A DNA stretch of 64,000 bases, from positions 96,001 to 160,000 of IMG/VR virus record IMGVR_UViG_3300045988_162176. One strand, given 5' to 3'. The position numbers and the translations under genes were made by a program. Below are positions 3,407 to 62,315 of the stretch, piece by piece. The notes under the pieces are model-generated. The model searched no databases. It worked only from the letters and a program-made list of their open reading frames with translations, and was not told the DNA's origin. Each line of letters begins with the position of its first letter. Positions within the stretch are counted from its first letter, which is position 1. The stretch is from a virus.

Positions 3407-3426
3407 TTTAAATACTCCTTTTATAA

Positions 3427-3639: not shown

Positions 3640-3653
3640 CAAATTATCCTTTC

Positions 3654-25711: not shown

Positions 25712-26919
25712 TATTAAAATTAAAACTGACTATTTTTTACGGATTTTCTGTGTCTAAGTTTTGGCCTACTTAGCATCCGCAAGCTGTTTCCAAGAGCGTA
25801 TCAATAGCTCCCGTACTCTTGGTCTAACCCAAGATAGTCGATACATCATTTTCAAAACAAATTAAAACTTTTTTCTATTAGTTGTTAAAGGATATTTATA
25901 ATCCTTATTATAATAAGATGCTCCGCTATTAATTTTTTTAATGGTACTATAACTTTTTTGATATTTTTCGGCAATCTCGGTAGTCTTCAAATTGCTATTC
26001 ATTAAATCTTCTTGAACAGGTTTTACCCATGAGTTGAAATTATGCAATCTTGAATTTCCTCTAATAGACAAAGGATATTGTAACTCATCATTCTTCCAAA
26101 TTTTACCATTATTAATCATTGAAAGCATCCGAACAGATTTAATATTCCATTTCTTTGCTAATTCTGTATATGTTAATTTCCCTTCTTGTAATTCTCTTTG
26201 AATTTCTTTTTGCTCTTGACGAGTGAACATATCAGAATGCCCATCATGTATATAATCATGTAATGGATAAGTTAAATCTCCTCTCTTAAAATTTAATCCC
26301 ACGTTAATATTAGTAAGAAGACTATCAGATAATTTAGGAGAATATTTTTCTCTTATTTCTTTCATTGGAATAGCTTCAATTAACATTTGCTGAATATCTT
26401 TAATTTCTTCCATCGTGAAAATTTTACTTAAAGCTACTTTTTGCTCAAATGTTAACTTTTCTTTTTTTGCTCCATTTTGCCGACCAAAATCGGTATTGTA
26501 GCCTTTGCTCCTATTAGTAGAATCATAGAAAGAAATATAAAATCGCTCTCTTTCGTCTACATATTCTTGACTTTCTTCTTCTGGAATTTCTTCTATAATT
26601 TCTTTTGAGAAATTATCCCAACCATATTTTCGAATGGCGTAATACAAATGTAAAATATATTCATGAGCTTTGGGATTAAAAGCACAAGATTTATGATTTC
26701 TCATACGAGCTTCAAAATTATTTGTTTGCCCAATATAAACTTTTTGATTCTTTAAATTAGTAATTTTATATATAACCATGGATTCCTCCTTTCGGTAGTA
26801 ATTTGTTTTGATTTGACACGAGATTTTACCCTCGTTAGCTAATTTCTAAGATTGCCAATCCTTAAAAGAAATTAACCCCGTTGATGAAACGGTTAAGCTT
26901 GTGAGCGCCACAACAACGC
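25712..26919 (-). mobile_element. group-I-like intron (about 1.2 kb) in dnaE carrying a GIY-YIG homing endonuclease
   Basis: It separates ..MNRGYGFN from KAHTLAY.. within the conserved GYGFNKSH motif. The GC-richer structured flanks contain R/S-like elements (GGGAGCUAUUGA ... AAAAAAUAGUCAG). Confidence 0.65.
25862..26779 (-). CDS. GIY-YIG homing endonuclease (I-TevI-like)
   Basis: N-terminus IYKITNLKNQKVYIGQTNNFEARMRNH. Has its own RBS GAAAGGAGGAATCC. 305 codons with no TAG. Confidence 0.85.
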   Translation of the reverse strand: MVIYKITNLKNQKVYIGQTNNFEARMRNHKSCAFNPKAHEYILHLYYAIRKYGWDNFSKEIIEEIPEEESQEYVDERERFYISFYDSTNRSKGYNTDFGRQNGAKKEKLTFEQKVALSKIFTMEEIKDIQQMLIEAIPMKEIREKYSPKLSDSLLTNINVGLNFKRGDLTYPLHDYIHDGHSDMFTRQEQKEIQRELQEGKLTYTELAKKWNIKSVRMLSMINNGKIWKNDELQYPLSIRGNSRLHNFNSWVKPVQEDLMNSNLKTTEIAEKYQKSYSTIKKINSGASYYNKDYKYPLTTNRKKF

Positions 26920-27081
26920 ATTAAAACCATAGCCTCTATTCATCGAAATTAATATATCCCATACATAATGGCACAATTTAGAAGAAAGATGTTTTTCTTC
27001 TATATTTTTGTAAAATTCTTGTTGCAGTTCAACATAAGCTTTAGGATTCTTTTTCAGTTTTGTTATCACAGAGCTTTTTAT
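26920..27081 (-). CDS. dnaE: DNA polymerase III alpha subunit, exon 2 (about 54 aa mini-exon)
   Basis: The frame is open only between TAA 27091-27093 and TAA 26893-26895. It encodes ..IKSSVITKLKKNPKAYVELQQEFYKNIEEKHLSSKLCHYVWDILISMNRGYGFN, which fills the segment between LRRAMGKK and GYGFNKSH of DnaE. Confidence 0.6.
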
Positions 27082-27299
27082 CTCTGCTTCTTACAATTTC
27101 TTGTAAGCTCGGCGTACATTATTAACTCTAATGAGTTAAAGGACACTCTTGGATGGATTATATTTATTCACCATCTACGCTCTACGATACTTAACAACCT
27201 TTCGCAATTTGTTAAGTTATCTCGGTATTTCCATTTTAAAGGGTCCACCGATTTTGCCCTTTTCATTTTACTTGTCACCAAGTAAACGGCCCAAAATTA
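27082..27299 (-). mobile_element. ORF-less group-I-like intron (about 218 nt) in dnaE
   Basis: Exon 1 stops at ..ADKLRKSIA+TAA inside the conserved aD.LRRAMGKK motif. The intervening RNA contains the P-like element CAAAUUGCGAAAGG. The proposed junction follows the U/G rule (GCU| ... GAG|AUA). Confidence 0.5.
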
Positions 27300-29711
27300 A
27301 GCGATACTTTTCCTAAGCTTATCAGCCCACAGCAAATCAAAACCACCAATTTCAGGGTCTTGAACTGCCATCATAAAGTCTTCTTGGTTAGGTAACAAAC
27401 CATAACTCTTCTTAGCATATTTACAAACGACTTCTTGTTCATGTTTAGTCAAACCATAATCATCCATCTCTTTATACCAAAGAGTAATATCTTTCTTATA
27501 ACGGCCAAAACGTTCAAGAGGTGTTTCTGCCCGTGGAGAAGGAGCCATAAGTCTCATTACTGAGTTCAAAGCAGATAAATCCACTAAACTTTCAGGTTTA
27601 CCTATTGCAACAGCTTGATATCCTGTTTGTTTTTCCATTTGGAAGAATGACATAACTTTATGTTCATTTAGCATTTTCCAAATTTCGGGATTATTTCTTT
27701 CTATTTTATAAACACCCAAATATTTTTCATAAGTAGACTTTAAATCACCTTGCCATTCAAGCCTACCATCTTCCATAAGAAGATTCATACAAACGTGTTC
27801 TTTTTGAAGAGCGTCAATAGAAAGCAAATCCCATTTAATAAGAGATACTTTTTCGTCAGCGTGTAAGTCAAATTGAGTAATAATATCTCCACTTGTTGTC
27901 TTCATTAAAGCAGCATGGTCTACAACATCTGTCGCTGAAAGAACTACACCACCAGCATGAGAACCGACACCACTTACTAACCCTTCAATATTTTGAGCAA
28001 CTTCCCAAACATCAGGATACTCATTAGTCATTAAGTTAACAAACTCTTTATCAGGACGTAGGTTGTTTTCTTCATCACCATAAAAGCATTGCTTTAAAGT
28101 AAATTGAATACCACGCTCCTGACCAATATGCGAACTTAACATCTGTCCAATTTCAGGTGGATAGCTTAAGCCACGACAAGCAGTTTGAATTGCAACTTTG
28201 GCTTTCATCGTAGAAAGGGTTTGAACTTTCATAACACGACGATTTCCTGCTCTCTGGTCATCTCCACAATACTTGCGTTGCAAATAATGAATAACATCAT
28301 CACGGTAAGCATTCTCGAAATCTACGTCGATATCTAACGGGCTAACACGTTGAGGATTAAGAAAGCGCCAATGTTTCGTTGGGACTTCTTCTCTTAAAGG
28401 ATTAACCTGAGTAATACCCAAAATATACAGAAGAATAAATCCCAAACCAGAACCACGAGAAGGACCAACTAAAGAACCACAAGCCCAACACGCATTTACT
28501 AAGTCACGAGTCTGTAGCAAATAAGCAGACCAATGAGCATGGTTAGCTTCTGAACTTGCTTTAATGGATTCAAGGCAAGTTTGAATTGCATCATAAGTTT
28601 CTTTATTTGCTAATTCATCAGAATCTTTTTCAAGACGCTTTACAATCTCTCTAACAAGATGTCTATCAGCGTTGTAGTCTGAATTAAAGAACCATTCCAA
28701 CATAGGAATATCTTTGAAGTATTTTTTAGACAATTCCGAATCAGGCTCAGTCAAATCGTCTGGCTCATAAGGAATTTCCAAATTAGCAAACAAAGTATAT
28801 TCTTGAACCATGTCATAAATTAACATGGTATTATCTAAACCTTTTTGCACGACTTCTGGCGTCAAAAATTCATCCATATAAGAATGAATTTCTTCTTCTG
28901 ACATCATATAAGTTGTGGCATAAAATTCTCCAACCTCACGTTCTTTACCACTATCTTCATTAGATTTAAGAAAAGCTTCATGTACTTTTCTATCTTCTCT
29001 TTTGGGATAGTGACTGTCAGTGGTAATAATATATGGAATATCAAGTTCAGAAGACAATTCTACTAAAGCTTGATTTACAATAATTTGTTCTTCGCTCTTT
29101 GATGGTTGTAATTCCAAAAAGAAATTACCATGTCCAAAACATTTATCAAGTCTTTTTAACCACTTTTTAACACCCGTGTAATCAGGCTGTAAAGGATTTT
29201 GTCTATAAGAATCCAAAATTAATTTTGGACAACGACCACCAAGACAAGCAGTTGAACCAATAATATGACCTCTATCAGATTCAACAACTTCAAACAAATC
29301 TTCATAATAAGTTGGAGTACGAATATTAACATAAGTAAAGGAATTATCAATCCATGCTCTTGTACTTAATTCTCTTATTTGCTTATGTCCAATAGCATCT
29401 TTAGCCAACAAAATGAAGTGATAAAAAATATATTCTTTATCTTCTTCAATGCTTTTTCGATTGCAAAGATAAATTTCATTACCTAAAATAAGTTTATAAT
29501 CTTTCCACTTATCAGGATTTTTCTTTCGCAAATCGTCTATTTGAGTTAATGCTTCAACGTGTGCGGCAATACAGTCATGGTCTGTAATAGCAACACCTTT
29601 ATGACCAAGCTCCTAAGTATATGTGAGAAGACCCTTGACAGTGTTAGTGCTGTCAAGGAAACCTCTCGTATTGGAGCCTATGTCTGTGTGATTATGTACA
29701 CCTACAAACAC
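27300..29711 (-). CDS. dnaE: DNA polymerase III alpha subunit, exon 1 (PHP, palm and thumb; about 804 aa)
   Basis: GTG start 7 nt after AAGGAGAG. PHP motif VFVGVHNHTDIGS...GVAITDH. There is one in-frame TAG at 29613-29615 (GLLTYT[TAG]ELGHKGVAITDH). Confidence 0.85.
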
Positions 29712-38238: not shown

Positions 38239-39189
38239 TTATCCTTCCCATTCAGAAAGAGGCTTTAGCGTTATATAATCTAAACCCGTAAGTTCATCAA
38301 TTATTTTTTTACAATCAGTGTAAACGATTTGTGGATAAGTTGTTAAACTGTCCCAACTACCTTTATAATTGCTTTTACAAAATTCTTTCGATATTTTTAT
38401 ATCTTCATTCACAGGATGTAAAAAAACACAATTTCCCGAATAATATTTTGTATTATCTCCATCTTTATAACTATCCCCTTTTGTCCAAACAGAACCATTT
38501 TGTATTTCCTTTACACTGGCTGAAAAAATTATCGTTTTATATTTTCCAGCTCCTAATTGACTATCATCTGTCACCCCTGCAAAAATTCCATTTCCCGTTA
38601 TTGTTTGCTCTTGTCTATCACCATTATATTTCCAATATGTTTCTATTCCACAAACATTTGGCGGTAACTCTTCTATATCAAGTACATCAATGTTTTTTAA
38701 ACTGAAAGCTATAGAGGATTTCTTTGCATATTCATATTCTTGGTATGAATGTACATTCAAATAAAAACAATTTCTGCCATTTGAAGTAATTAATCTACTA
38801 CCAGTAACTCCATACCCCGAACTTCCTGCTGTATATTTCATCACAGACCCATCTGGTTTTGTAAAAGTCGCAATATCATCATTAAATTCTAATTTAATTC
38901 CAATCGCCTTAAATGCCTCAACCAAAAATTGTTCCCCCGGCTCACCCGAGCCGATATAGTGTTGTAAAGCACTTGAATAATACGCATCTCGTTTTGCAAG
39001 TGCAACAGCATTTACATCCATAGCATGAATAAAACCGTTAAATGATTCTTCGTTAACTATAATAGAACTATCCAATAATTTATAAAAAAAATCGTATGTA
39101 TATGCCCTGTCATAATTATTTCCCATTGATACCATTCTTTGTAATAATCGGACCAAAATATATTTGTATTGTCCAGAAGTGTAAGACAT
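38239..39189 (-). CDS. hypothetical protein (316 aa), translationally coupled to uppS
   Basis: Uninterrupted ORF with a TAATG overlap with uppS. Contains no TAG codons. Confidence 0.55.
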   Translation of the reverse strand: MSYTSGQYKYILVRLLQRMVSMGNNYDRAYTYDFFYKLLDSSIIVNEESFNGFIHAMDVNAVALAKRDAYYSSALQHYIGSGEPGEQFLVEAFKAIGIKLEFNDDIATFTKPDGSVMKYTAGSSGYGVTGSRLITSNGRNCFYLNVHSYQEYEYAKKSSIAFSLKNIDVLDIEELPPNVCGIETYWKYNGDRQEQTITGNGIFAGVTDDSQLGAGKYKTIIFSASVKEIQNGSVWTKGDSYKDGDNTKYYSGNCVFLHPVNEDIKISKEFCKSNYKGSWDSLTTYPQIVYTDCKKIIDELTGLDYITLKPLSEWEG

Positions 39190-39848
39190 TAAGATACACC
39201 CCCATATTTTCTTTTTATACCCTGAAATGTTTTAACTGCGTGCTTAAATTCCCCAATAGATAAATCTGGAAATAAAGTATCTGTGAAATAAAGTTCAGAA
39301 TAAACAGATTGCCATAATAAGAAGTTGGACATACGATGATATCCACCAGTCCTGATAATTAAATCTGGTTCGGGAAGATTTTGATACAAAGCAGCAGTAA
39401 TCTCATCTTCTGTTCTCGCTCCCTTAGCAATAGCATCAACAATCTCCATTCGACCAGAGTAATTACAACATAGATTCAATATCATACCATCACAATCTTT
39501 CGTCTCATTTTGAATTAAATCCATTTTAGACAAATTTTCTTTTGGAACTCTCTCTTTCGTTCCTGATATTAAAACACGAATATTGTTTTGTTTAAATTCT
39601 TCATATCTATCAAAATATTTGTTTGCCATTTCAAATAATTTATCAACTTCCTCCTTGGGGCGATTCCAATTTTCCCATGAAAAGCAGTAAACAGATAACA
39701 CAGGGATATTTAATCCTACACACCAATGCGTCATATCCTCCAACTTTTTCAGACCTTGCTCATGCCCTGCGGAACGTTCTAAGCCACGTTTTTCCGCCCA
39801 ACGTCCATTCCCATCTGCGATAACCGCAACGTGTTTTAATTGATTCAT
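39189..39848 (-). CDS. uppS: undecaprenyl-diphosphate synthase (cis-prenyltransferase)
   Basis: Collinear with E. coli UppS along its full length: HVAVIADGNGRWA, FSWENWNRP, IRTGGYHRMSNFLLWQSVYSELYFTD, RKYGG. RBS AAGGGAGGAAG. Confidence 0.9.
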   Translation of the reverse strand: MNQLKHVAVIADGNGRWAEKRGLERSAGHEQGLKKLEDMTHWCVGLNIPVLSVYCFSWENWNRPKEEVDKLFEMANKYFDRYEEFKQNNIRVLISGTKERVPKENLSKMDLIQNETKDCDGMILNLCCNYSGRMEIVDAIAKGARTEDEITAALYQNLPEPDLIIRTGGYHRMSNFLLWQSVYSELYFTDTLFPDLSIGEFKHAVKTFQGIKRKYGGVS

Positions 39849-42090: not shown

Positions 42091-42101
42091 TGCAATCTCC
42101 T

Positions 42102-43109: not shown

Positions 43110-43124
43110 TTAACTCTCCTTTCT

Positions 43125-45533: not shown

Positions 45534-45578
45534 AATTTTAAAACTGTCATTAGTCACACCTGTGCCACCAATAATCCT

Positions 45579-46713: not shown

Positions 46714-47775
46714 TTATCCTTTTATTTTTTTGGTTACATTCCATCTAGACCCCATTGCAGTTGTTACTCCGCTCCAGAACTTTGCAGGGTCATTAACTCC
46801 TTCAAGTACAACGTCACCCTGAACAATATATTGTGTACCACAATTATTATCTGTTCCAGTACGTTTCATTTCAGGTAATCTTGTAGTTGCCATATTACGT
46901 AATAAATTGTAAGCTTGGTCACTGTTTAAAACATATTCAGGTTTGGAAACTGAACCGTGTAACATTGCAAGACCTGTATAAGTTACTGGACCTTGTTCAA
47001 TACCTGTGGAATAACTATTATTACCCCAGTATTCAGCTCCTGTTGCTTTGTTTCCCTTCTTTTTCCATTCTTTTTCTATTTCTGCATTACTTTTATATCT
47101 GAACTGCTTACCAGAACTATCCAACCGCATCTAAGCACCATTTAAATTCATATCGTGACGAAGCATTTTTTCTTCTCTGTATTTAGCCCATTTATCAAAT
47201 TCTTCTTGGGTTTTAGCATTAACCATTAATTTAGCATAATCTACTCCATCCTTCAAATCTCCAAAGTCTTTCATATTTGGAATATATTTATCCGGTTTAA
47301 GTTCGTCAACCATTGTATCGTTTTTACCCATAGCATCAGATGCATTTAAAAGAGACACTCTTTCTCTGAGAAGTTCAGCAAGTTTAATATTAGCTTCTTT
47401 ATAAGGAGTTAACAAATTATCTTGGAAAATAGTATTATAATTCTAATAATTGTTAGCAAGGTCAGAATTAAATTTCTCCATATCCGTAGTTAACAATTCT
47501 TTAATTTTATCTTCAGAATCTACTCCCATAAGAGCCTTGAGAATACGCTCGTTTTCCATGCGTTCGTATTCTTTATAGTCCCAATCAAGCTATTCAAGAT
47601 ATTTATCCCACGCATCAATCTTCTTTTGAATTTTATCTACTTCTGCATCTTTGGTCTTGCCCAAATCATTAATTTTATCTTCACGATAAAAAGAATCTAA
47701 ATCTTTTTGAGCTTGTTTTTGTTTGGCCCGATTGGATTCGTATACCCATCCTATCGAATCTGTTACTTTTGTGAC
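46714..47775 (-). CDS. giant tape-measure-like protein, exon 3 (C-terminal about 353 aa)
   Basis: Track fragments 47590..47778, 47131..47415 and 46714..47130 are in one frame, joined by TAGs at 47590, 47443 and 47131. This exon carries the only TAA of the whole gene, at 46714-46716. Confidence 0.7.
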
Positions 47776-49002
47776 CATAATTAAAATTATGGCGGCAAGG
47801 CATTTCTACCTTGCTCTCGTGTTTCATTTTTAGATTATAGCACGAGTCCAGACTGTATATTATATTATTTAATAATATTATTTAAATAATACGATAGCTG
47901 AACTCAATATGTTACCATATTAAGTGTGACAGTCGTTCGAGTTTCTGTTAAAATTATTAAAAAAATCATCCAAGATTTCAGTAAGCCTTTTCTTATCCTT
48001 GTAAGAAATTTCTAAGAGACAAATTCCTTTTTGCTAACAATATTCTTTCTTTATTTTATCCCTCTTTTGTCCATCTTCAAATCTTTTTGCAGCTTTCTAT
48101 TTAGATTCTTCTGTAGGAGTGTAAGAAAAATCTACTGGTTTATAATGTTGTTCTCCCTAATATTCTATACATACATTATAGTCTGACAAATAAAAATCAA
48201 ACGGAAGAAGCTATTTATATCTACAATCATCAAAACGTTTCTATGGAGTAAAATTTACATTGTGGTCTTCTAAGTAAGTATAAATAATACTTTCTCCGAT
48301 AGACAATTTACAAAAATGACATCCTGTTTGTAAAGTTACAAATTTATCTGCTTTTGTAGTAGTTAGTCTTCCACAAACTTTGCAGCGACAAGTTACATCT
48401 TCTTTTATACCATTATATTCTCCAACTACTTCCAAGGAAGGGTTAATTTTTGTTAACTTTTCTTCATACCATTTTTTATCTTTAATAAAACGTTCCCTCA
48501 ATTTTCTTTTCTTGCATTCTGGACAACCTTCTCCTCTTTTTATTTTATTTGGTCTTGCAGAAAAAATGTGCCGATATTTACAAACAAATTCTGTTTTTTC
48601 GGTATCGTTCTTATATTTACCATAAAGTTTAATTTCTTTATCAGCAATATCTTCTATAAAATCTTCTTCTGTATAACATTTTAATCTGCATCCACAACTT
48701 TTAGCATGTAAAAAAGCATACGCATAAGAAATTCTATCAGGTTTATTTGGATGATTTAAACAATGAAAAATTACAAGTTGCTAATTTTTATCGTTTCTTT
48801 TTGTACCAACAATTTCAACATCTAAAAATTTAGCTTGTTCTAAATATTTATCTGTTAATTCCCATTCAAAATTATTCTCTTCCATTTTATCCTCCTTTCT
48901 TTAATAATATATAATAATTTTAACAGTCTTACTTCGGTCTCGACCTTCTCAGGCTATTAACCGATATAGCTATCTTTTACGAGGGCATTGGTGTTCACCC
49001 TC
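47776..49002 (-). mobile_element. group-I-like intron (about 1.23 kb) in the tape-measure gene carrying an endonuclease ORF
   Basis: The coding frame degenerates after ..KEKERVYR (CGU|) and resumes at |GUC ACA (VTKVTDSIGWVYESN) after a G. The flanks are structured and GC-richer, with R/S-like strings (GAGUUCAGCUAUCG, AAUAUACAGUCUGG). Confidence 0.6.
47920..48885 (-). CDS. intron-encoded endonuclease: N-terminal Cys-rich zinc-ribbon modules plus a C-terminal PD-(D/E)XK (Vsr/DUF559-like) domain
   Basis: Has its own RBS AGGAGGATAAA plus ATG 48883-48885. CxxC pairs (CPECKK, CRCKVCG, CHFC). C-terminal FDFYLSDYNVCIEY[TAG]GEQHY motif. There are six in-frame TAGs (48781, 48241, 48211, 48157, 48097, 48034). 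The stop is TAA at 47920-47922. Confidence 0.6.
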
Positions 49003-52000
49003 ACGGTATACTCTCTCTTTTTCTTTAGCGGCATTCTTTTTCGCGGCAAGCAAATCTTCAAGCTGTATCTAACGTTCAAGCTCATCATTAATATCCTCAA
49101 GAGGTTTAACTTCTTTTTCATAAGCCTCTTCAATAGCATCTATATCTTTTTGCAGTTCATCTTTATAAAGATTAACTCTATAAACAATGGCATCATATTG
49201 CTTCTCTTGAAGTTCAATTAAATCTTTTTGCTAGTCTATTTTAGCTTCTTGAATAGATACAATAGCATTATTTAAACCATTAACAAGCTCTTTTATTTGC
49301 TCATCAGTATATCTGGAGGTATCACTCAAAGCCTATTTATATGTTTCCACTTGCTTTTGCAATAAATCTATCTTACTATTATAATAATTATTGATATCAT
49401 CAGATTTTATCCATTCTTTTGGAGCAGATTTTTCTAAAGTACTTAATTTATCTTCAAGTTCCTCAATCTAATCTTTAAATTTCTCAAAAATAAGTTCTTC
49501 TTTTTTCTAAATAAGGCTAAACAAACTTGATATACTATCTCGATAAGCCTGAGAATAATCATTGTTTCCTTGAGGAGCAAAAGCCTAAGCTTCAGTTAAA
49601 GACATACCATCTTTCATATATGCTTCAACTGCCTTATTAAAATTATATTCAATAGATTCCTTTGTAGCTTCAATTTGTTTTTCAATTGCTTCAATAGAAG
49701 AATTTAAAACAGAATCATACAAAGATTCATTGGTATAAGCAGTGCCTTTAACATACTGCATCTGAATATCATTTAACTCTAATTGCCATTCAGCTACTTT
49801 TTTACGTAAATCAATTTCATCTTGAATTAAACTATTAAGTTCTTTTTGACGTTCAAGTTTTTCTTCATAGGTATCAGCAGTTTTCAAGTGAGCTTTTTTT
49901 ATTTCTATTAATGCTTGGATAGATGCTCCATATAATTCAAGAATCTTATAATTATCTTCAACTTCTTCATCATCAAGATTATTAATAGCTTTTTGATTCT
50001 CAATGTAGTTCTTTTCTGCATCTAATCTCTCTTCTTCAGTGAGATTGGCATTTTGCATTAAACCTTCATAATATCCAGCTAATTTTTCGAGGCTTGCTCT
50101 CTTCTTTTCAAAATACGCCGTGTATCCAGTAGGTTGTAAAGTATTTTCATCAAATACTTTCATTGCTTCCCATTCTTTGTCAATAAGAGAATCATAAGCT
50201 TTGAGAAGGTCAAGAATTCCATCTTTAGCATCTTTTGCAGATTTGCCCAAATCTTTCATCGGGTTTCTATAAGCTTTTTTCCAACTGTCTTGTGTCAATT
50301 TTCCAGAATCGAGGATATCCTAAATCTTATAACCTAAATGTTCCCATGTAGCAATTTCGCCTTCGTCAAAATGTAATTGTCCATCTTCTCCAATATGAGT
50401 TTTACCAGTCCATTTCCGACTTTTTGCATCATAAGTCATACCACCAGATAACTTATCAATTTGCTCCTGCAAGGTATTCATTTTTTCTATTCTTTGTTCT
50501 TCATTAAGAGTAATTGTCTTGGTTTCAACTTTTCCCTCATATTTTTTAGCTTTCTAATTACCAAATTTAACTTTGCTTTTAGCTTCTTTATATTGTTCAG
50601 GAGTAATTTCTCCCATTTTTGCTTGATTATAAAGAGCCCACATCCGAGCAACATATTCAAGATTATTAGCTTGATTAATTAAAGCATCGCTTTCTTTTTG
50701 CAAAGCATCAATTTTTAGATTTGCAGAAGTAACCGTTGCATCAGCCACTTCTTGATAAGTATTACCAGCCGCTAATTGTGCATATTGATTTTGAAGAGAA
50801 GCTAAAGTATTTTTCTTTTCGGCAATCGTTGCCTATATACTAGCCTAAACAGCAAGTAGTCTTGCCCTTGCCATTGTCTCCTCAGCATCAGATTTTAATT
50901 TGATAGAATCTCCCTCAAAATCTAAAACATTAATATAATCTTCATTCGCTGCTAAAAGGTCTAAAGTAGTTTCTAAACTCAAATGACCAGAAGCATTTTG
51001 TTCTTCTCTAGCAGAAGACAACTAATCGAAAATTTCATCAACACTCTCTAAAGCCTCTTTTAATTCAGAAAAAGTGTTAATAATACCATCTTCACCAAAA
51101 TCCATTCCAGCAAAAAGATTTTCAAGGTCATATGACACAGATTTTATATCATAGTTTAAATGGTCTTTTATAGGGGCAAGATTAAGTTCTTCTTTTACGC
51201 CATTATTAATAGCCTCATTAAAATGCTTTCCAAAATAAGTTCCTGCTTCCTCAAAATCTAATTGCATAGCATCATCTATTATTTTTTGAGAATTTAGGAC
51301 GGAATTCCAAGTCTCTTCGTCATAGTCAGAAAAAGTTTCTGCAATAGCAGCCTTGTTATCAAACCTAGCCCCACTTCGCCACATCTAAGCCGCTTTACGA
51401 TAAAGAGCAGTATTCCCATTTTCATCTAACGAATCACGTTCAGTCATTCGTTGTGACGCCTATTGTCTTAAATAGGAATCTTTACCAGAATAATACTCAC
51501 CATTAACCATATTCATCATGGCTTGAGGATTATTAATAATATTACTACCCATCCAACCATTTTGAGCAAGACTAAACGCTCTCTTATATTGGTCTTGAGT
51601 CATTCCATTTACAGCATTGGCGAATTCTTCGGAAACCATTTTTGTTATGGTGTTAGAATCGAGTCCCATAGCTTCCAACAACTCATCCAAAGGAGTAGAA
51701 ACATGAACGGATTCAACGCCCTTAAATTCAGCATCAATCTTATAACCCATGCTTATAAGCATAGTTTTACCATCAGCAGAAAGCTCTCCATTTTCATCCA
51801 TAAGAGCCTCTACCAATTCTTTTCTATACTTTTCTTTCCACTCAGCAGATTCACCAACAGTTTTAAACTCCCCAGTACCATAGTAAACATCTACTATTGC
51901 TGGATTGTTTTTAACTATTTCTGTCATTTCTTGAGAAATAGATAAAATCTGAGTTTTAAAATCATCCATGTCAGTATAATCAATATCTTCTCCACGAATC

Positions 52001-54570
52001 TTTACCATGGCATTAATAAATGTTTGTTCATCTTCATCCATAGCTTTAATTGTAGAACTAAGTCCAGAGAATTTATATCCAACATCAACTATACCATCAG
52101 CAGTTGCCGCATAATCAATTAAAGCATCTGTATATTCCAGTATGTCTTGTTTAGAGTCATGCACTACTTTTTGATATGCTTCTTGTTCTTTCTTTAACTC
52201 TTGCAATTCTGAGTAGGCTTTCTCATACTCTTCTGTTCCTTTAGTTAAAGAATTAACATAGTCTTCTTGTTCTTTTACTTTGGTATTTAACCCTTTTGTT
52301 GTAGCATCAAAACCAGTGCCGGTAATTGTCGTTTCATCACCTAATTTACCCCCTGCTTTGGAAATATTTTTAACCGCATCATCCCATTGTTGACCAAAAA
52401 CACTTAAATCAGAATCAGTAGGATTTAACCATTGATGAACCCAATTAAAGAACCCTCCACCATTATCAAAGAATTTCGCAGTTGCAGTCTCTTTTAAAGA
52501 TTGTACCATTTTATCAACCGCTTCTGTTACTTCTCCAACTTTGCCAGCAAGCCCATCAGGACCAACTAATTTATTTCCATATTCATCTGTACGAACAACT
52601 AACTCAGGGAAAGCTTCTGCTAATTTATTAGACAAATCTAAAAATTGTTGATATTCTTCGCTTGTAAGAGAAATATTATTACCTAAGTAATCTACTCCTT
52701 TGGCAAGTTTATCATATTCAACAGTATTGGCAGAAGAAGACAAAGCATTGCTATAAGCTTCAGAAGCTTCATTATAAGCTTCCTGTAAATTTTTCTTAGA
52801 ATTTTCAATGCCCTGTGCAATTCCTGCAACTACTGCTGCACCAACCATTATTCCTAACCCAGCTAAAGAAGAAGGCTTTATTGTAGTTGTAAATTCTTTC
52901 CATGCGCCACTCAACCGCGCACTCAATTGCTCACTTGCTTCTCCACCTAACATTTTAGTGAGTTCTTTATTAAATAAAAACTTCTTTCTAGCTTTTACAA
53001 GAGCATTGCCAAACTCGTCTCCAAATTTAGAAAGGGTTTTACCACCAAGAGAACCTCCCAAAAGCATTCCAATTGTTTGTCCTCCTGTACCTCCAAGGTT
53101 TTTACCTATTGAAGACCCAATCCAAGTTCCTCCAAGCATACCAAGTAATCCACCAATACCAGAAGCAACCATTCCAACACCCGTTTGATTAGAAGACTAA
53201 CCAACATTAACACCCATCTAATTAAAAGTACGTCTATAATTAGGGTCGGCGTTTCTACCACTTAATGCTCCACGGGCAAAGAAATTTTTCTTCCGAGCGT
53301 CATATTCAGCTTCTCTTGCTCTATATTGCTCTTCTGTCATACCCATTTCTGCTATTGCTTTTCTCTTAGCTTGTTCGTATAATTCAGAAGCATTTTGCTC
53401 ATCTTTATACTAATCTTTCAAATTTCTTATGGCTACAACATCTTCATACCTTGCATTGTATTCTTCTTGTAAGACTTTTAAAGTTTCAGCTTTTAAACTG
53501 GAAATTAATTTAGTTTTTGTTGTATCATCTAACAATGCTACAGTTTCATCAGAAATATTACCATTTAATAACTCTTCGGCAATTCGTTTTCTATCAGTTG
53601 TTTCTTGGGCTAAGAAAGTGGATTGAATAATTTTATAAGTGGCTTTTTCTTCATCTGACAACGCCGCCGCTGCACGATTCAAAGCACTACTATAAACTTC
53701 TCCAGCAACACTATCCATGCTTGCAGAAGTTTCTGCCCACATTCTACTCCAAGCAGCTTTTGCATATTCTGCGTCAGCACTTTGATTGGCTGTGCCACTG
53801 AACACCTAACCCATATTACCTAAGAATCCAGCAACTTTTCCTGCTCCACCAACAACGCCAGACACAAGTGTTCCTTTTCCTACAATTCCAGCAGCAGCAA
53901 GTAAAGCAGCCCCAAATAATGTCAAATTGTCGGCTACAGCAGCCAAGCCATTATAAACAGTTTCAAGTACGCCACTACTATTAAGCATTAAAGCCCACTT
54001 TTCTAAGCTAGCAGTTAAACGCTTTTGAGCAGCTTCAACTCCACTTGTATAAGCTTCCATCTTCTTAGCAGCAGTACCAGCAGATTCAGCAGCAATCTTT
54101 TCATACTTAGCTACCAAATCCATGTTCTCCATAAGGATTAAGAAGTTTTCACGCTGTCTCGTACCAGCCACAGCAGTAGCAATACCAGACTTTTGAACAT
54201 CACTAAAGGATGTCCATTTTTCAGAAATATCATCAATGATATCATCAACATCTCTGAAATTATCAATAGAATCTCTAACACTAATACCAACAGCTTTTAA
54301 TACCTGTTCAATTTCATTCAGGTTAGAGAAATCTTCTTGGGATAACCCCTCTTGTTCAGCTTCCTCTTGGGAAACTTCAAATTTTGTTGCGGCAATTTTT
54401 TGGAATCTTGAGTACAATGTCTTGAAGCTCTCACCAACAGTTTCAGGTGTCTTCTGAGAAACTTCCGAAACTGTCGTAATCATTGCCATGTATCTATCCA
54501 AACTGGAACCCGCCAATTGCGCTGAGACGTTCGCACGACTCATTGCAGCAGCTAAGTCACCAGCACTAAT
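49003..54570 (-). CDS. giant tape-measure-like protein, exon 2 (about 1,856 codons)
   Basis: Track fragments 53806..54543, 53410..53805, 51460..53172, 51022..51384, 50554..50748 and 49585..50298 are all in one frame. They are connected only by TAG codons (17 counted) with no TAA or TGA. A Gly-rich hydrophobic segment lies around 52.9-53.2 kb, followed by long coiled-coil-like stretches. Confidence 0.7.
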
Positions 54571-54895
54571 CTGTTATGTTTAAATGATTCGCTAAATCAT
54601 TCGAGAAAATTCTCCTCATACTTTCATATGAGCACTGACTATATCTTCACCCTTATTATAAGGGGCGTACTTTTTCGGAAAATCAATCGCTTATTTCCCT
54701 ACTCCTTTTTAGGATAGTCGATGGACATTATTCTATTCAAATCTTCGCTGCTGATTATCTAATCTTTATATTTTTTTAGCATTCACATTTAAGTTTATTT
54801 CATCTTTATGTTGTAGCATATAAAGCTCTAAAGATTTCCCAGCAATTAAATACGTTTTCACTCACATATTACTATGTTTGCGACCTATTTTATTA
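54571..54895 (-). mobile_element. ORF-less group I intron (325 nt) in the tape-measure core
   Basis: The classical P, Q, R and S elements occur in the correct order on the minus strand: AAUUGCUGGGAAA (54847-54835), AAUCAGCAGCG (54756-54746), CCAUCGACUAUCC (54724-54712) and GAAGAUAUAGUCAG (54648-54635). The 5' exon ends in U (GCU|) and the intron ends in G (CAG|). Splicing joins ..LTAVDMAAA to ISAGDLAAAMSRANV.. in frame. Confidence 0.85.
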
Positions 54896-57800
54896 AGCCG
54901 CCGCCATATCAACCGCAGTTAATTTATCAACAACTTCTCCCACTTCATCAACAGAAAGTTTCCAACCTTTAAGAACAGAAATTAAATATTCCGTAGCTTT
55001 GGCGGAATCAATCATACCAAGAACGCTAAGATTCATGGAATTTTCAACAAGCTGAGAAGCTTCTTGTCCTTCGTAACCAGCACGAAGCCAATCGTTAGCT
55101 GCCGTGGCAACTTCTTCTGTACTCTTACCAACTTTACGAGCTAATGTATTAAAATCAAGCATCATGCTTTGAATCTCTTTATAGCTGTAACCACTTGCAA
55201 TCTGCAAGTCAACCATTACTGCATTAAGAGACTTAGCACTATTCATGATTTGATTAAACATATTTCTAACAGTCATTGCCAATTGATTAGCAATAACATC
55301 AATACTTACTAATCTTGCAAAACTGTTAGTAAACGTCTTTCCTATAGTTTCAAGAACACCTTTTTGCTCTCTATAAGTAGCATTAATTTTAGTAAGCTTA
55401 ACTTGATGTTGAGCTTGCAAATTAGCTTCCTGTTGTTCGAGCTTATTAATGGCTTCTTGACTATAGCCCATTTCTTTAAGTTCTTTAACTCTTTCTGCAT
55501 ATACAGTACCCTATTGCTTTAACAAATTCAATTGTTCACTTAAAGCGGTACGAATATTTTCCTGCTCAAGTTTTTCATATCCTGAAGAATTACTGACTTT
55601 TAAATCTGTTCTTTGAATCTCTTCTTGCAACTTCATCTGTTGCTTAAGATTATTAAGATAATCCTTAATATCTTTATTACCTTGAGAATTTTGGAAACCT
55701 GTATTCCTGTTCATTCTATCAGTAATAAATTGAGGTCTATTATTTAATTTTTCACCATTCTGATAGTAACCAGTGGTAGCAAATTGAGATTCAGCAAGAA
55801 TTTTATCCTGTTGAATACCTTGTCCTTTAGAGCCTCTTTCAAGACCTTCGGCAACAGTTGCCATAGAAGCAGCTTTACCCTTAGTTGTTTCAACAAAAGA
55901 TTGACCATCCTTTGTAAAGCTTCTAATAATTTGCACGAAAGAACGAGCAAAAGCTTCAACACGAGCTTCACCATCTTCAATAATAGCAGAAATATCTCCC
56001 GCCCCAGAGTCTTTATCAAAGCCTTCGAATCCGAGTTCAGCAACTCTTGTCTTCAAATCACTTGATAAACTATCAAAAGATTTACCTTCAGATTGAGCTT
56101 GCTTTAATTTTTCAACAACCTGACTGTATTCAGATTCAGCCATCCTAAGATAAGTACTTGCTTGTAAAACACGAGCGGCACGCATCCGTGGGTCATCTTC
56201 TCCACCACTGTTAGAGAATTTCCAGTCTGCAACAGTTACATCTGCGTATTTACCATTAACTTTTTGACCAAAAGTCAAAGCATCCGCAGTACCAGCAAAA
56301 GCACGATTACCAATAACTCCACCAAGCTTAAGCTCTTTGAGTGTGGAACTATTTAACGCACCAGATGTTCTTGCAGCATTAACAACATCACGGGCTCTAC
56401 CCTGTTGGCGTTGCAAATCTTCCGCTGTTACAGATAAACCAGCGCCTCCAAGTTGAGGCGATTTTCTAACTTCATCTATTAATTGCTCCATTAACTCATC
56501 AGTCATATTGTCGATGTTTTCAACAATAGCATGAGCAAATGTACCCAACGCAGAAGCTTTATTACCAGATTGAGTAGTATTCGGGAATTTACTGTAATCT
56601 TCATAAGGCGCAGTTGTCACTTGAGTAACAGACCTAAGATTTCCGCCCTCAGAAGAATAAGTCTTATCACCGACCTTCATAGTTCTGGAATGACCTTCAC
56701 CAAGTTCACTCACAACATCAGCCGCAATAAATTTAGCCCATTCGCCACTTGCGTCTTTCAAATTAGCCGCTTTATCAATAGAATTAGTCTGAGAAGCTGT
56801 TTGATTTGCTTGAGCAACAGGAGCATTTGCTTTTACTTCAGTAGCACCATTTACATCAATGTTACCAGTATTAACAATAACTTTACCATTCTGAGCATTA
56901 ACAACAACATTACCCTTAGCATTAATAACAGAACCTTCAACAGTTTCTTCTGTGCCATCTTCAGAAACTCTTACCCATTCGCCATTGTCATTAAGATAAG
57001 TCTTATCTTTTCTTAATTCACCATTAAAGGTGCGATAAGGGTCTAATGCTTTAGAATAATTAGTGGCGTCCTTAAGAGAAAGACCCATTGGTTTAAGATA
57101 AGCTTCAAAACTATTAAACGCTTCAATAAGATTTTCCATGGTCGCGCCCTTAAAGGATGCAAATTTACCATTCTCATCAACGGTAGCAATTCCCATCTTT
57201 GTAAGAGCATCAATCTAAGCTTTATCTCCACTTGCAATTATTTGAGAAGCAACAGTTTCAAACTGCTTACCGTCCATTATACTGCCAAGAACATTAAGGT
57301 CTTTAGCAATACTTAAGAAGCCCTTTTGGTCATCAGTATCAGCAAAACGTCCTTCATGAATTGCACTAACCAAATCTTTAACAGCTAATAAAGCTTGGTC
57401 TTCACTCATTCCTTCTTTGCCGATTAATCTTGCGTAAATCTTTTTAGAAGAAATCGCATCCTGTTCAAAAGATTCCATGGTGGCTCTAATAATAGCAGAT
57501 TGCACAGCAGAAGTTGCACCATTATTGTCGGCAAACCCTGTTTTGTACATAGCTTCTCTTGCTTTAGTGTCAGCATCAGAGAACAATCCGACGTTTTGGA
57601 ATGCCATTTTAGCCTGTTCAGATGCATCTTTATTTATCCATTTCTTAGATAAATTTTTAGCAATCGTATTCCAGCTATCATCTATATCGACTTTTTTATT
57701 TTGAGCTTTTTGCTTTTGAATCTGATTCATAATACTTGCAACAGTATCATTGTATTTTAAGATATAATCCTCTGCAAGTTTTTCATCTTCACCATATTGT

Positions 57801-60800
57801 TCATATACCTTAAGAGCCATGCGGAATTTATCACCGTCAAAGTCTCCTCGGAACAATTCAGCCAAACCAGCACTAACTCTAATTGTATCGCCAGCAGATT
57901 CGTCCAAACCAAGTCTTGCAGTATATCCTTCCATACCTTGAGTATAAGGATAACGACCCACTTCTGTAGTAAAAGTGTTATTGCCGCTCTTTATCTCACC
58001 AATAATAGCGCCAATAATTTCTTCTTCAAATTGATTTATTTCATCTTCCGAAAGTTTATTGGTAAACTTTCCATCTTCAAACCGAGGTCTTAAAGACATC
58101 GAAGTAATAACTCTTTGTCCACTCTCTTTAATAGATTTTGCTCTTAAAGTAGAAAAGAGTCTGTTAATATTTTCAAGCCTGTCTTGTTTAGTAGCGGAAG
58201 ATGTACTGCTCATTAATTCTCTTAAACGCTTAGAAGAAATATAAACCGTATTAGCTTGTTCATCTGTTAAATCAGCCAACTTAGAAGTACCCGCCGCAAC
58301 AGAGAAAGCAGAATAAGGTACATAATTATGAGTAGCTTGTTTTACCAACTCGGAATCTTTTGTATTGCCAAGTTTATGATAAACATCAGCCGCATATTGC
58401 TTTGCTTTCTCAAAAGCTTCTTGGGATTCTGTAGCAGCTTGCAGTAATGCAGAGTTAGCACTATCAATAGCGCCAGAATAATATTCTCCATCAGGAGACA
58501 TTGCTGCACCAGCATCTCCAAGCAAATATTTCTTTCCACCAATGGCAGAATCAGAAAGATTTAATACAATATTACCACGAGCATAAGCTTCACCTTCAGA
58601 CCCTTCTAAAGCAGAAAGTTCTTTTTGAAGTTGACGTGCTCTTTCCATAGCGAAGTTTTGGTATTCCTCCGCACTTATCTTACCAGAATGTCTTAAAGCA
58701 TTGATGTCAGTAAGAATATCAGAATAAACCTAATCACCAGCTTGAAGAACTACTTGACCATCTTGAACTCTAAATTCAACATCTTTTGTTCCTTTGGCAG
58801 TGGTATAATCTGTAACATTATTAAGAGATTTGTTAGCTGCAATTAAATTCTTGCGAACTTTTTGAGCCTCCAAACCTTTTTTGCCATATGTATTATCTTG
58901 TTTTTCTTGTTGAGCTTTTAAGCTCTTCAAACCAGCAATAACTTTTTCTCTATCTTTAAGATTACTTTGACCAGCAGCAGATTTAGTAATATAATCTAAA
59001 CTTCTTTGTCTTGCATTTCTTACTTTCCAGTCATCAGTAACACGTCCATCTCTTTCAAGTGTATTTGCACTACCATAACCAGAAGCATTAGAATAAGGAT
59101 AAATATTGTGCTGTCCAATGCCAAGAGAAGCTAATCCTTTAATAGAATCATATATTGCCTATGCTTCAAAAGCACTCTTACCAATCCGTTTAAAGATTGC
59201 CAATGCAGATTGTTCGATTCCCTTAAAAGAAGCTAACGTTTCCTCTGGATTAGCAAAAACATCTTCGCCTCGCTTGTTTGTAACAACACCATTTTTCTCA
59301 TCGGTAATATCAACAAGTAATTTCTTTTCTTCTCCATTCTCTCCCGTTACAGTTTGAATTTCAAACATCTTCTAAAGGAGAGGAGGTAAATTACTATAAA
59401 TGTTTTCAAGAGAAGAGCCTTGTTCCAAAGCCTTATCAATAATGGTGTTTATTTGACCCATGAACTCAGAATAATAATTACGTTCTTTTACATCATCATT
59501 CAGCAAAGTCAAATAATCAGCATCAGCAATAGCATTCTTACCTCTTGCAGCCCAAAACTGTTTAACAAAATCAGCTTTACTTACTCCATGTTGTTTTTCT
59601 GCATCAGCAGTTAAACGTCTACCACCTTCATCAACAAGCTTTACACCTTGTTCAACTTGTCTAAGTCTGTCAACCAGTAATTTCCAACCGTTATCAGTTT
59701 TCTCAAGACCAACCAGTAAATCCCCCTCATTTACAGAGAAATCTTTAGAGAACATCTTAAACTGGTCTTTGCCAACTGTTTGATTAATATCAATAACTGA
59801 ACCAGTTTGATAATCGCCAGAAGCAAGACTATCAATATCTACACCAAACTGATTTAAGAAATCTAAAACAATATCTTCAGTATTGGTAGCCTTAGACACA
59901 TTCCTTTGAATACTTTCAGTTTCAGCAATAATCTTGTCTGTAACTAAAGCAACATCGGTCATATCTTTCAACATAGAATCTATTCTATGTGTATAATCTT
60001 TATCGCTTTCACCAGCCATTTGAGGATTGAAAGATTGATAGTACGCTCTTTCAGCTTCATCAAATTCTTTTTGAGTTAAACCATAACTCTTATATCTCTT
60101 ATGTGTGATATCTGTTCTATCAATACCAGCATCCAAAGCTTGCTGAGTAGTAGTAACAACTTGACTCATGGCATCAGAAGATGCTTCTCTACTTGCAAGA
60201 GCTTTTTCAGATAATCTTAAAGTATCAAAAGCCTGAGATAAACTTCTTTGAGTTGCGTCTATACCTTGACCAAAAGGAACATATTGTCTTGAAGATACGG
60301 TGTAATTTTTACCAAGAGCAAATTTACCCTCGGATTCACCAGTATAATCGCTTGGCATCGCCGCACCAATTTCTTTAGCCGCTTTTCTATAATATTTAAA
60401 AGCATCACTGGTCATAATGAATTTAACCAGTTCATCAGCTATAGTATCTGGGTCTAAATTTTCTTTCATAGCCAACGCCCAAGCATTAGCCATAGCGTCA
60501 GTTAATTCTTTACTTGGGTCAAAAGCATTGTAATTTGCTTTATACCCTTCGTTATTTCCTGTAAAATAGCCACTTAATGCCTCTTTAACATCTTTTTGAT
60601 TAAGAGTAGACTGAATTTCTCTAGCGATACTATATTGAGTAGAACGCATAGCTTCTAATTCGGTTAATTTACCAGAATAGCGAGTATTAGAATCTTGAAT
60701 GTCTTCTCTTGCTTCAGAACCCATCGTAACAGAAGATACTTTGTTAATAGCTCTGTTTGCCCCTGATTGCAAACGACGAGAAATTTGGTCGGAAGAATAT

Positions 60801-62302
60801 TTAGTAAAATCTGTATTTCTTAAAATAGAAGTCGCATCTTTAACCTGTAAAGTTTCTGCCGTTTCCATTACTTTGACACCCTTTACTTCAGGAGTGCCAT
60901 CTTCTTTCAATTTTCCAGTGGGGATAAATTCTGTTGCAACTTCAGCTTGATTGATTCTACCACCAGCAATTCTACCAGTTTCATCACCAACTGCAAAAGA
61001 TACTTTTATATTATTCTCTTTTTTCCAATCTGTTGATTTGTATTCTTTATCTAAAGGAATAAGCATAGCCTGAATTTCAGAACCATTTCTTCTAAAATAA
61101 ACAGAATAACCTTTCTTTTCTGCTTCTTCAACAAATGTTGCTAAGGCATCACGAGTAGTACCATATCCCTTATTACCGCCACCCGTAATATTAGATACAT
61201 CTTGTCCAGCTCTACTTTTTTGTCTGTTCCTATATTCAGCACCAGTTAATGAAGCTTTCGCTCCTTCGTTAAAGCCATTAATTAAAGCATCTAAACTCTT
61301 ATAGACTTCAACAGAATGACCTTGAATATTTTCTTTGTCAGAAGCAAAAGTACCACCAAAAGATTCAATTTGCTATTTTGACAAAGCTCCAGAAATTCCA
61401 CCAGAATTTTTAGCAATTAAATTAAAACTGCTTCTGTATTTTTCTGCCTCTTTTTTAGCTGTTTCTTCAGTAACATTCCTCTAAGTTTGAATAGATTTGG
61501 AAAGCTAATTAATTATAGCCTCCACTCCATCAAAAGTATCAAAATCTTTAGAAGAAATAGCTTTTACAAAATCAGCTTTAACCGCACTATTAACCATTGT
61601 TTTTGGAGTTGTTGGCATTTTAACTGTTTTGCTTTTTGTGGCTTTTGCAACAGTTGGCTTTTTTGTTCCTATGTTGGTAATCCCCTAATTCAAAGACAAA
61701 CCAACATCTACAGCCATTTTTTGAACAGCAGTAGCTAATTTGGCTTCTTCTTTAGAAGTATCAATAGGCGTAAAACCAGATTTCTTTTCTTGAAGTCTTT
61801 TTACTCTATATATAAGCTCTTGACCTCTTTCTTGTGCCTTTTGTGTCAAAGCTTGATAAATAAATTCATAAGCTTTCCTTTGCTCGTCTACACTTCCTTG
61901 AAAATTTTCAGCTTGTTTTATCATATCAATAGCCATATCAGCTTGCTAATTGATATAATCAATACCCTGTTGTTCTAACTATTGATTCTTAGCATCATTT
62001 ACAGCTATTTTCTTTTTGTTCTTGTTGTTTTGCCCTTGTCTACTAGCTTTTAAAGTCTCCGTAGACTTTTTCATATTAGAAATTTGTTGCTCTCTTTGAG
62101 CATTCAACATATCAATAACATCGTTAGTTTGAGTGCCATTATTAATTAGACGCTTAGTAGCTTCTTGGGCTTTCTTTGTATCTATAGCCTAACCAGTACT
62201 CTTACCTTTTTCATCCAAGCCATAAGTTTTTTTTATATCCGAATATGCTTTAGCTTGAATATCTTCTATTCTCTATTCTAAACTTTTCAGTAAATCTTCC
62301 AT
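54896..62302 (-). CDS. giant tape-measure-like protein, exon 1 (2,469 codons; N-terminal extension plus the start of the TP901-type TMP core)
   Basis: ATG 62300-62302 follows AAGGAGGAATAATAC, and a TAA lies two codons upstream in frame. Track fragments 61685..61936, 59372..61066, 59159..59368, 58730..58930, 57215..58648, 55511..57196 and 54893..55471 share one frame, joined by 13 TAGs. The TMP core motif ..LQIASGYSYKEIQSMM..ATAANDWLRAGYEG..LSVLGMIDSAKATEYLISVLKGW..VVDKLTAVD is present. Confidence 0.7.
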
Positions 62303-62315
62303 GTATTATTCCTCC

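Follow-up and report, generated by a model that had tools for sequence, protein, structure and literature searches.

A giant TAG-recoded, twice-interrupted tape measure gene of an SPbeta-like jumbo siphophage encodes an RNA-polymerase-like domain and a predicted nuclease

The 64,000-nt stretch of viral DNA analyzed here (positions 96,001 to 160,000 of IMG/VR record IMGVR_UViG_3300045988_162176; called the window below) carries on its minus strand a gene of more than 15 kb whose reading frame becomes visible when TAG is read as a sense codon and two introns are removed. The predicted product is a single chain in which a variable N-terminal module is followed by an RNA-polymerase-like domain of ~1,000 aa, a PD-(D/E)xK nuclease domain, and a YomI-type tape measure protein (TMP) of ~2,370 aa (Table 1). 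We interpret this as one late gene, TAG-recoded and twice interrupted, that probably encodes a multidomain TMP by which an SPbeta-like jumbo siphophage injects its own polymerase.

Nearly all long open reading frames (ORFs) of the window, which has a GC content of 33%, lie on the minus strand. With TAG as sense, the gene interval contains frames free of TAA and TGA at 62305..54893 (7,413 nt), 54573..48949 (5,625 nt), and 47823..46714 (1,110 nt), and a 981-nt TAA/TGA-free frame sits between the second and the third. Frames this long without TAA or TGA in DNA of 33% GC cannot have arisen by chance. An earlier note on this DNA had proposed a single gene that starts at the ATG at 62300-62302, behind an AAGGAGG and an in-frame TAA, and that ends at the TAA at 46714-46716. 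Start, ribosome-binding site, and terminator are all as described, the upstream TAA lying at 62308-62306, and the relatives all begin with M(E/A)DLLKSL.... No TAA or TGA had been missed in the joined frame, which contains exactly 33 TAG codons where about 33 had been counted; both TAG codons that the note had quoted at junctions (57217-57215 and 55513-55511) are in frame. The single giant product therefore stands, with small corrections: it has 4,673 codons rather than about 4,680, and exons 2 and 3 measure 5,574 and 1,041 nt instead of 5,568 and 1,062 nt. Homologs of exon 3 are numerous (n = 193), and many of them are annotated as separate ORFs of 270 to 470 aa.

TAG is best read as glutamine in this gene because it aligns mostly with CAA or CAG in relatives. 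Among the two relatives with readable DNA, glutamine codons were found at 12 of the 16 non-TAG partners in the comparison of L002 with the window and at 15 of 20 in the comparison of L002 with L001. TAG-rich ORFs cluster between ~40.8 and ~63 kb, among the tail genes, while ORFs below 40 kb mostly have none and a few have 1 to 5. Concentration of in-frame TAG in structural genes is broadly the pattern of recoded gut phages (Borges et al., bioRxiv 10.1101/2021.08.26.457843), which this phage resembles also in the presence of TAG codons in an endonuclease-like ORF inside its second intron.

Under the standard code, the minus strand shows only short ORFs across the gene interval. The earlier note had predicted such fragmentation, and public records display it: UniProt/BFVD holds “uncharacterized” pieces of 69 to 477 aa, with 90 to 98% identity, from “Siphoviridae sp. 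ctLqe90.” Taken together with the lack of a suppressor tRNA in the window, these split calls could be read to mean that the long frame is an artifact, that TAG is a true stop, and that the interval holds several genes or a decaying pseudogene. Such an origin would not leave zero TAA and TGA codons across 14 kb at 33% GC. It is also at odds with the match of TAG to CAA/CAG in relatives, with domains that span TAG codons and an intron junction, with an uninterrupted ORF in a standard-code relative, and with public calls for relatives that already reach 2,456 to 4,358 aa. As far as sequence can do so, this explanation is already refuted, and we give it next to no weight; the gene model itself we regard as nearly certain.

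By sequence similarity, a TMP related to YomI of SPbeta makes up the C-terminal ~2,370 residues. Family PF10145 is matched over profile positions 2-201 of 201 (E = 3.5e-27), nine PHROG families of tail length tape measure proteins are matched, and residues 2319-2718 align with YomI 327-726 (E = 7e-21). The TMP core had been expected from around codon 2,300, which is consistent with the PF10145 match, and the glycine-rich hydrophobic block predicted near 52.9-53.2 kb was likewise found. Long helical regions occur in the TMP body, encoded by exon 2, together with the glycine-rich and hydrophobic segments, which are of the membrane-active kind. The gene sits in a tail module: one of the ORFs downstream has a match to a PHROG tail protein, and in relatives the region is syntenic with yomK-yomJ-yomI-yomH-yomG of SPbeta. 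The relatives' neighborhoods contain the YomU tube, YonJ_N, and YorF Pfam families and a YomM-like integrase, and their gene order matches SPbeta yomU...yomM-yomK-yomJ-yomI-yomH-yomG. On the basis of the YomI similarity, the SPbeta-named families, and the shared gene order, we conclude that the phage is an SPbeta-like siphophage with a large genome of about 215 kb. From phage lineage and GC content the host probably belongs to the Bacillota; a scan of bacterial genomes returned just four weak matches, in metagenome-assembled genomes, and no host assignment.

The fusion of the N-terminal half to the TMP is conserved. When the N-terminal 2,264 aa served as query in a word-indexed search, 20 clusters were retrieved (62 to 96% identity, 2,456 to 2,733 aa); all of them share the start and continue into the TMP core, on contigs of up to 218 kb. 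An exhaustive profile search yielded 36 representative clusters (50% identity; contigs of up to 219 kb), 13 of them below 1e-30, and these include proteins of 2,166 to 4,358 aa with just 22 to 28% identity. In all fifteen long relatives (22 to 96% identity), the polymerase-like region lies upstream of the TMP core, so that the claim of a single gene holds down to 22 to 28% identity; none of the relatives searched encodes the N-terminal half on its own. The spliced product can be aligned colinearly with two relatives, P0022 (4,071 aa) and P0026 (4,358 aa), beginning at about residue 366 and reaching residue 4327 in the first case and residue 4323 in the second. L007, the contig that encodes P0022, uses the standard code, with TAG terminating 8 of its 16 called genes, and its 4,071-codon ORF of the same architecture has zero TAG, TAA, or TGA codons in frame. 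The fusion is therefore genuine, whatever is assumed about recoding or read-through. No match for the N-terminal region was found by blastn and tblastn in 50,697 GenBank phage records.

Another relative, L009, is TAG-recoded, with 37 TAG codons in the gene, and has the same gene order as L007 (1-29974). Since one contig is standard-code and the other recoded while gene order is shared, the code change occurred within the lineage. Upstream of the TMP gene, both contigs carry genes for a Beta-CASP/metallo-beta-lactamase nuclease (a match of the anti-Pycsar Apyc1 type), a ClpP protease, a YonJ_N exonuclease, and an integrase.

Pfam and PHROGs searches of the N-terminal 2,264 aa returned no significant family, and the earlier note had described some 2,300 codons there as an extension of unknown function. 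The extension is as large as stated, but two domains can be recognized in it, one RNA-polymerase-like and one nuclease. The first was recognized from a motif, GRYPYTQG at 57958-57935, that lies ahead of a DFDGD loop in the pattern GRYPYTQG-(30)-GDFDGDKF (residues 1449-1494). This pattern resembles NRAPTLH...NADFDGDQM of the RNA polymerase beta' subunit, and none of the long relatives lacks D[FY]DGD. An alignment of 16 family sequences (A3; mean column identity of 32%, about 23% pairwise identity) has the consensus HRYPSTSG-(~30)-NADYDGDK, and its invariant columns include R540, P542, D577, D579, G580, and D581. Because the aspartate triad and the R-x-P are invariant across the 16 members, we read the pattern as a retained active site. 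When the A3 profile was compared with all PDB sequences, vaccinia rpo147 (E = 0.004) and phiKZ gp55 (E = 0.14) were matched exactly at the DxDGD segment. The Pfam family matched by most A3 members was RNA_pol_Rpb1_2, weakly (2 of 16, best E = 0.055).

A template-free AlphaFold2 (AF2) model built from A3 reached a predicted local distance difference test score (pLDDT) of 76.9 and a predicted template modeling score (pTM) of 0.70. Searched against PDB with Foldseek, it gave 153 matches at E ≤ 0.001, of which the top 50 were all bacterial RNA polymerase beta' (E from 4e-5, probability 0.98-1.00). In BFVD, the matches were fragments from “Siphoviridae sp. ctLqe90,” which derive from the same gene, and giant “minor tail” proteins (TM-score relative to the query [TMq], 0.38 to 0.52), followed by RNA polymerase subunits of jumbo phages and giant viruses. 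Short beta strands at model positions 335-364 form a candidate second barrel; a lysine-containing motif, KKxLLAD, is kept in the A3 consensus, its lysine mostly conserved. Barrel A is followed by two conserved helices, MSKxNKxYVGxFSN and LEQDAISAKK. We conclude that the domain is very probably a two-barrel polymerase homolog. An earlier AlphaFold model from a shallow alignment of four sequences (pLDDT 39) was discarded, and a PDB search with the shallow profile gave chance matches to TGF-beta-induced protein only.

The second domain is a predicted PD-(D/E)xK nuclease with an intact set of catalytic motifs: GTxxH..E, E.xLGG, GxAD, DWKFS, and RxxQxxxY are kept in 12 family members, including the window protein. 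Pfam PDDEXK_1 was matched by P0022 (30.1 bits) and P0027 (32.4 bits) above its cutoff of 22, and a precomputed match exists for P0020; the window's own protein had no Pfam nuclease match at E ≤ 1. The N-terminal module is swappable. In P0016 to P0018, residues ~228-340 are replaced by a block ~250 aa longer, with identity falling to 37 to 48%, and P0027 has weak RNase_T/RNase_H-like (exonuclease-like) matches at this position. The earlier note had raised, as an alternative to a very long tail, that large parts of the protein are cargo domains. For the N-terminal half, with its RNA-polymerase-like and nuclease domains, this alternative is to be preferred.

The closest precedent is gp96 of Thermus phage P23-45, a 5,002-aa TMP whose residues 327-1124 are an active, clamp-less two-barrel RNA polymerase with DFDGD at 779-783. 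It is found in virions, transcribes pre-early genes, and was proposed by its authors to act at the TMP pore during DNA entry; Chaban et al. (2024) called the association of polymerase and TMP “previously unsuspected” (PMC10770324). The protein described here shares with gp96 its giant size (4,673 versus 5,002 aa), its origin in a long-tailed siphophage, the position of the predicted polymerase domain N-terminal to the TMP in one ORF, and the single-chain DFDGD type with the same motif spacing (RNP, 38 aa, DFDGD in gp96). It differs in that the polymerase-like domain lies ~700 aa further from the N terminus, an extra PD-(D/E)xK nuclease stands between polymerase and TMP, and no metallopeptidase domain was found by Pfam. 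The phage, too, is unlike P23-45: it is of SPbeta-like lineage with another host lineage, 33% GC, and contigs of about 215 kb, and its gene is TAG-recoded and has two introns. A BLASTP comparison with gp96 gave nothing below E = 0.5.

Two other comparisons are informative. The relatives' neighborhood (YomU tube, YonJ_N, YomM-type integrase, two small genes, TMP) is syntenic with that of SPbeta, which also encodes a two-barrel RNA polymerase, YonO. In SPbeta, however, the polymerase is a separate gene, its motif is DNDGD rather than D[FY]DGD, and ~326 residues precede the matched core in YomI versus ~2,300 here. Multisubunit beta' proteins (RpoC, poxvirus rpo147, and phiKZ-type subunits) provide the best structural and sequence matches, with NADYDGD in the family against the universal NADFDGD and with the upstream R-x-P-(S/T) motif in common. 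They differ in that the domain described here is part of a single chain inside a tail protein, has no partner subunits, and aligns in its catalytic core alone. Judged by its motifs, the domain is closest to the beta'/Rpb1 type. Chaban et al. used 23 named two-barrel families, such as “Cyano_RUMTOR_01356” in human-associated siphoviruses (PMC10770324). Ours is apparently a polymerase family different from those of gp96 and YonO, the two with which its profile was aligned.

Polymerases that are packaged in virions and ejected for the transcription of early genes are also found in podophages. The virion RNA polymerase (vRNAP) of N4 is T7-like, not two-barrel. Like gp66 of crAss-like phage phi14:2, it belongs to the internal or ejection proteins of podophages and not to the TMPs. 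The phi14:2 gp66 protein is a two-barrel enzyme within a larger protein (PMC10770324). In the literature searched, the polymerase-nuclease-TMP architecture is not described in work on recoded phages or intron-bearing TMPs, and no TMP-polymerase fusion is reported outside Thermus phages. Group I introns and TMPs do occur together in several papers, and recoding of late genes by TAG is known.

The analogy with gp96 suggests how the protein may work, and that its polymerase domain acts as an injected transcriptase seems to us somewhat likely. Synthesis would take place late, once TAG is decoded as glutamine and both introns are spliced; the protein would be built into the tail and, at infection, leave the particle before the DNA does. 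With the TMP part as a conduit through the envelope, the polymerase would enter with or just before the leading DNA end and would itself transcribe the first phage genes, which are standard-code, with no need for the host enzyme. The nuclease may be additional injected cargo, acting on host or incoming DNA.

Several points weigh against this interpretation. The sequence-level matches to RNA polymerases are marginal, at E = 0.004 and 0.055. The structure shared with beta' is confined to a core, as low TM-scores show (0.17-0.20 relative to the query), and the second barrel was assigned by eye. By hhalign, A3 matched an alignment of gp96, a P23-45 variant, and TSP4 with a probability of 0.6% and YonO with 0.2%. 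Since neither value is significant, the domain is filed in neither the gp96 nor the YonO family, and since profile-profile similarity is lacking, the link to the gp96 precedent is architectural, with homology not shown. Within the 64-kb window, we found no partner non-virion RNA polymerase, no early promoters, and no tRNA genes that could include a suppressor; a second DxDGD protein was not found there either. Finally, we infer, and do not observe, that the N-terminal half is attached to the TMP in the virion.

The limits of the polymerase similarity, which is confined to the core and comes with no Pfam RNA polymerase call above threshold, also leave some room for a D[FY]DGD two-barrel fold that does not make RNA. 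It might instead be a plug, a DNA-binding or translocation module, another nucleotidyl transferase, or “polyvalent” antidefense cargo, and the adjacent nuclease and swappable N-terminal modules do look like a cargo array. Invariance of the three metal-site aspartates and the upstream R-x-P in 16 members with ~23% pairwise identity speaks against this, as does the fact that all characterized proteins with this motif in a two-barrel fold are polymerases (PMC10770324). We consider a noncatalytic or otherwise diverted fold improbable.

Another arrangement concerns the fate of the chain. One of the in-frame TAG codons, at codon 2264 (55513-55511), separates the nuclease precisely from the TMP part, residues 1700-1860 form a poorly conserved linker of low complexity, and relatives carry an upstream gene for a ClpP-type protease. 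Processing is also known for the TMPs of several phages. The gene could be single while proteolysis, or incomplete read-through of TAG, divides its product into two halves, with the N-terminal half remaining outside the virion or being packaged separately. Yet L007 has no stop of any kind between the halves, so control by read-through is not a general mechanism, and the maintenance of the fusion in cis at 22 to 28% identity argues for selection on linkage at least until assembly. For P23-45, western blots of virions used antibodies to an N-terminal gp96 fragment. Separation of the halves is accordingly an alternative that we judge unlikely, though less so than a fold without polymerase activity, and we retain injection of the intact multidomain TMP as the preferred interpretation.

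The length of the tail bears on how much of the chain measures. TMPs scale at ~0.15 nm per residue, which predicts a tail of ~350 nm if only the YomI-like half measures and of ~700 nm if the whole chain does; the same figure gives about 340 nm for YomI (2,285 residues). The tail of P23-45 is 800 nm long, suggesting that the whole gp96 chain measures.

A broader view, which we put forward tentatively, is that gut SPbeta-like jumbo phages independently evolved or anciently kept a TMP-delivered machine for transcription and DNA processing, in which an undescribed two-barrel family and an active nuclease are ejected ahead of the ~215-kb genome. In the literature searched, a TMP with a virion RNA polymerase has been demonstrated only for P23-45-like Thermus phages. 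If the view is correct, the injection of a polymerase coupled to the TMP would recur among long-tailed phages as a strategy and not be a Thermus oddity; with a second family, unrelated in sequence and found in abundant gut phages, enzyme delivery by TMPs would become a general theme, with a nuclease joining the injected cargo. A TAG-recoded phage would also obtain its initial round of transcription, in the standard code, independently of the host, and this is a possible route by which recoded jumbo phages begin infection without host RNA polymerase. Such enzyme domains go unseen unless code 15 is applied and introns are removed, because standard pipelines shred the gene.

Table 1 Features of the tape measure gene, with positions in the window
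Feature	Position	Strand	Residues	Remarks
Whole gene	46714..62302	minus		three exons and two introns; spliced product of 4,673 aa; 33 TAG read as Gln
Ribosome-binding site AAGGAGG	62317-62311	minus		8 nt 5' of ATG 62302-62300
Exon 1	54896..62302	minus	1-2469	13 TAG codons
Exon 2	48997..54570	minus	2470-4327	5,574 nt; 17 TAG codons; TMP body
Exon 3	46714..47754	minus	4328-4673	1,041 nt; 3 TAG codons; TMP C-terminal region
Variable N-terminal module	61283..62302	minus	1-~340	swapped or expanded in relatives
Family-conserved region with two-barrel RNA-polymerase-like domain	57203..60445	minus	~620-1700	
AF2-modeled part	57098..59572	minus	911-1735	
Candidate second barrel (barrel B-like strands)	58463..58573	minus	1244-1280	“NIVLNLSDSAIGGKKYLLGD...”; by eye
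DFDGD	57830..57844	minus	1487-1491	putative catalytic metal-binding loop of barrel A
PD-(D/E)xK nuclease domain (predicted)	56144..56701	minus	~1868-2053	
DWK catalytic motif of nuclease	56230-56213	minus		motif alignment
TMP core, PF10145	54163..55147	minus	2386-2605	split by intron 1
Hydrophobic segments of TMP body	53949-53848 and 52884-52801	minus	2677-2710 and 3032-3059	
Gly-rich block	53190-53023	minus	2930-2985	
Intron 1	54571..54895	minus		group I; 325 nt; no ORF
Intron 2	47755..48996	minus		1,242 nt; group-I-like; carries endonuclease-like ORF
Homing-endonuclease-like ORF in intron 2	47920..48885	minus		321 aa; 6 TAG codons; own ribosome-binding site

Of the two introns, which the earlier note had both called group-I-like, the first is a group I intron by its match to the full Rfam model RF00028 (Intron_gpI; gathering score of 50), which scores 57.7 bits (E = 7e-13). 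The match was recovered with permissive Rfam filters, a default fast-filter scan of the whole window at the gathering threshold having returned nothing. At the end of the upstream exon, GCU|, P1 contains a U.G pair; the last intron base is G. The intron-less relatives P0022 and P0026 read ...VVDKL(T/S)AVDM(A/S/Q)AAISAGDLA... with no insertion or deletion relative to the spliced product, and the PF10145 match crosses the junction 2469|2470 (DMAAA|ISAGDL) in one stretch. The boundaries originally given for this intron, 54571 and 54895, are exactly right. Among the relatives P0001 to P0035, ORFs end at seven or more positions within ~80 codons of the TMP core (window ~54.5-55.1 kb), with breaks after DKLT, DKLS, AVD, DMAAA, MSRA, TTIA, and AAN; the TMP core appears to be a hot spot for independent intron insertion.

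The second intron is equally real, but its ends, earlier given as 49002..47776, had to be moved by 6 nt (5') and 21 nt (3'). At the 5' end, exon 2 closes with ...CGU GAG GGU| at 48997, where GAGGGU pairs with GCCCUC 10 nt downstream to place a U.G pair at the splice site; at the 3' end, the intron closes with ...AUUCG| at G47755. The spliced product reads ...RVYREG|IGWVYES..., and P0124 and P0129, whose intron lies a few codons upstream, read YREG(V/I)GWVYES uninterrupted. The reading of P0022 ends at REG|, and its contig, L007, has at the same site a homologous ORF-less intron of ~270 nt, after which IGWVFEQ follows. The junction that follows from the earlier ends, VYR|VTKVTDSIGW, was rejected: relatives read YREGIGWVYES, and the U.G pair precedes the corrected site.

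Between the window and L007 copies, the 3' 115 nt of intron 2 show compensatory double changes in 9 of 25 predicted pairs, which indicates that the RNA is structured and under selection. A candidate P7 was found by eye from R/S-like elements (AACGACUG ... AUAUACAGUC), the halves of which, GACUG and CAGUC, flank the ORF. Rfam RF00028 matched neither the window copy nor the ORF-less L007 copy, and the intron is therefore graded as group-I-like only. Its ORF has weak matches to DUF2726, DUF723, and a DUF4379 zinc ribbon, all under curated cutoffs, and would fit a homing endonuclease. Because of its six in-frame TAG codons, it is translatable only once recoding is active, the same logic as that described for a recoded intron endonuclease by Borges et al. 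(bioRxiv 10.1101/2021.08.26.457843).

Immediately downstream of the TMP gene (window 40864-46577, minus strand), three further, heavily recoded ORFs encode proteins of 1,150 aa (22 TAG codons), 335 aa (9), and 408 aa (9). The 408-aa ORF, which matches a PHROG tail protein, is the sole one with a family match; the 1,150-aa protein has no detectable homolog in PHROGs.

Elsewhere in the window, a gene for DnaE, the alpha subunit of DNA polymerase III, is split (24287-28907, minus strand) into a part with NTPase and finger domains (28907..27297) and a part with an HHH_6 domain (25849..24287). A GIY-YIG endonuclease ORF (26779..25862) lies between them, and the interruption is probably a third intron or a homing-endonuclease insertion; Rfam detected no intron at the split. 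A protein with WGR and PARP catalytic domains (2584..1337, minus strand) adjoins a Macro-domain protein (3406..2687), and the two are a possible writer/eraser pair for ADP-ribosylation, which would be unusual in a phage replication module. The stretch at 10810-40859 is a replication and nucleotide-metabolism module that encodes a Sak4-like annealase, a DnaB-like helicase, a RecJ-like exonuclease, a RecD2-like helicase, an RNA ligase, an anaerobic ribonucleotide reductase, an NAD-dependent DNA ligase, ThyX, and UvrD. A sequence resembling undecaprenyl-diphosphate synthase was noticed by eye only at 39848..39189.

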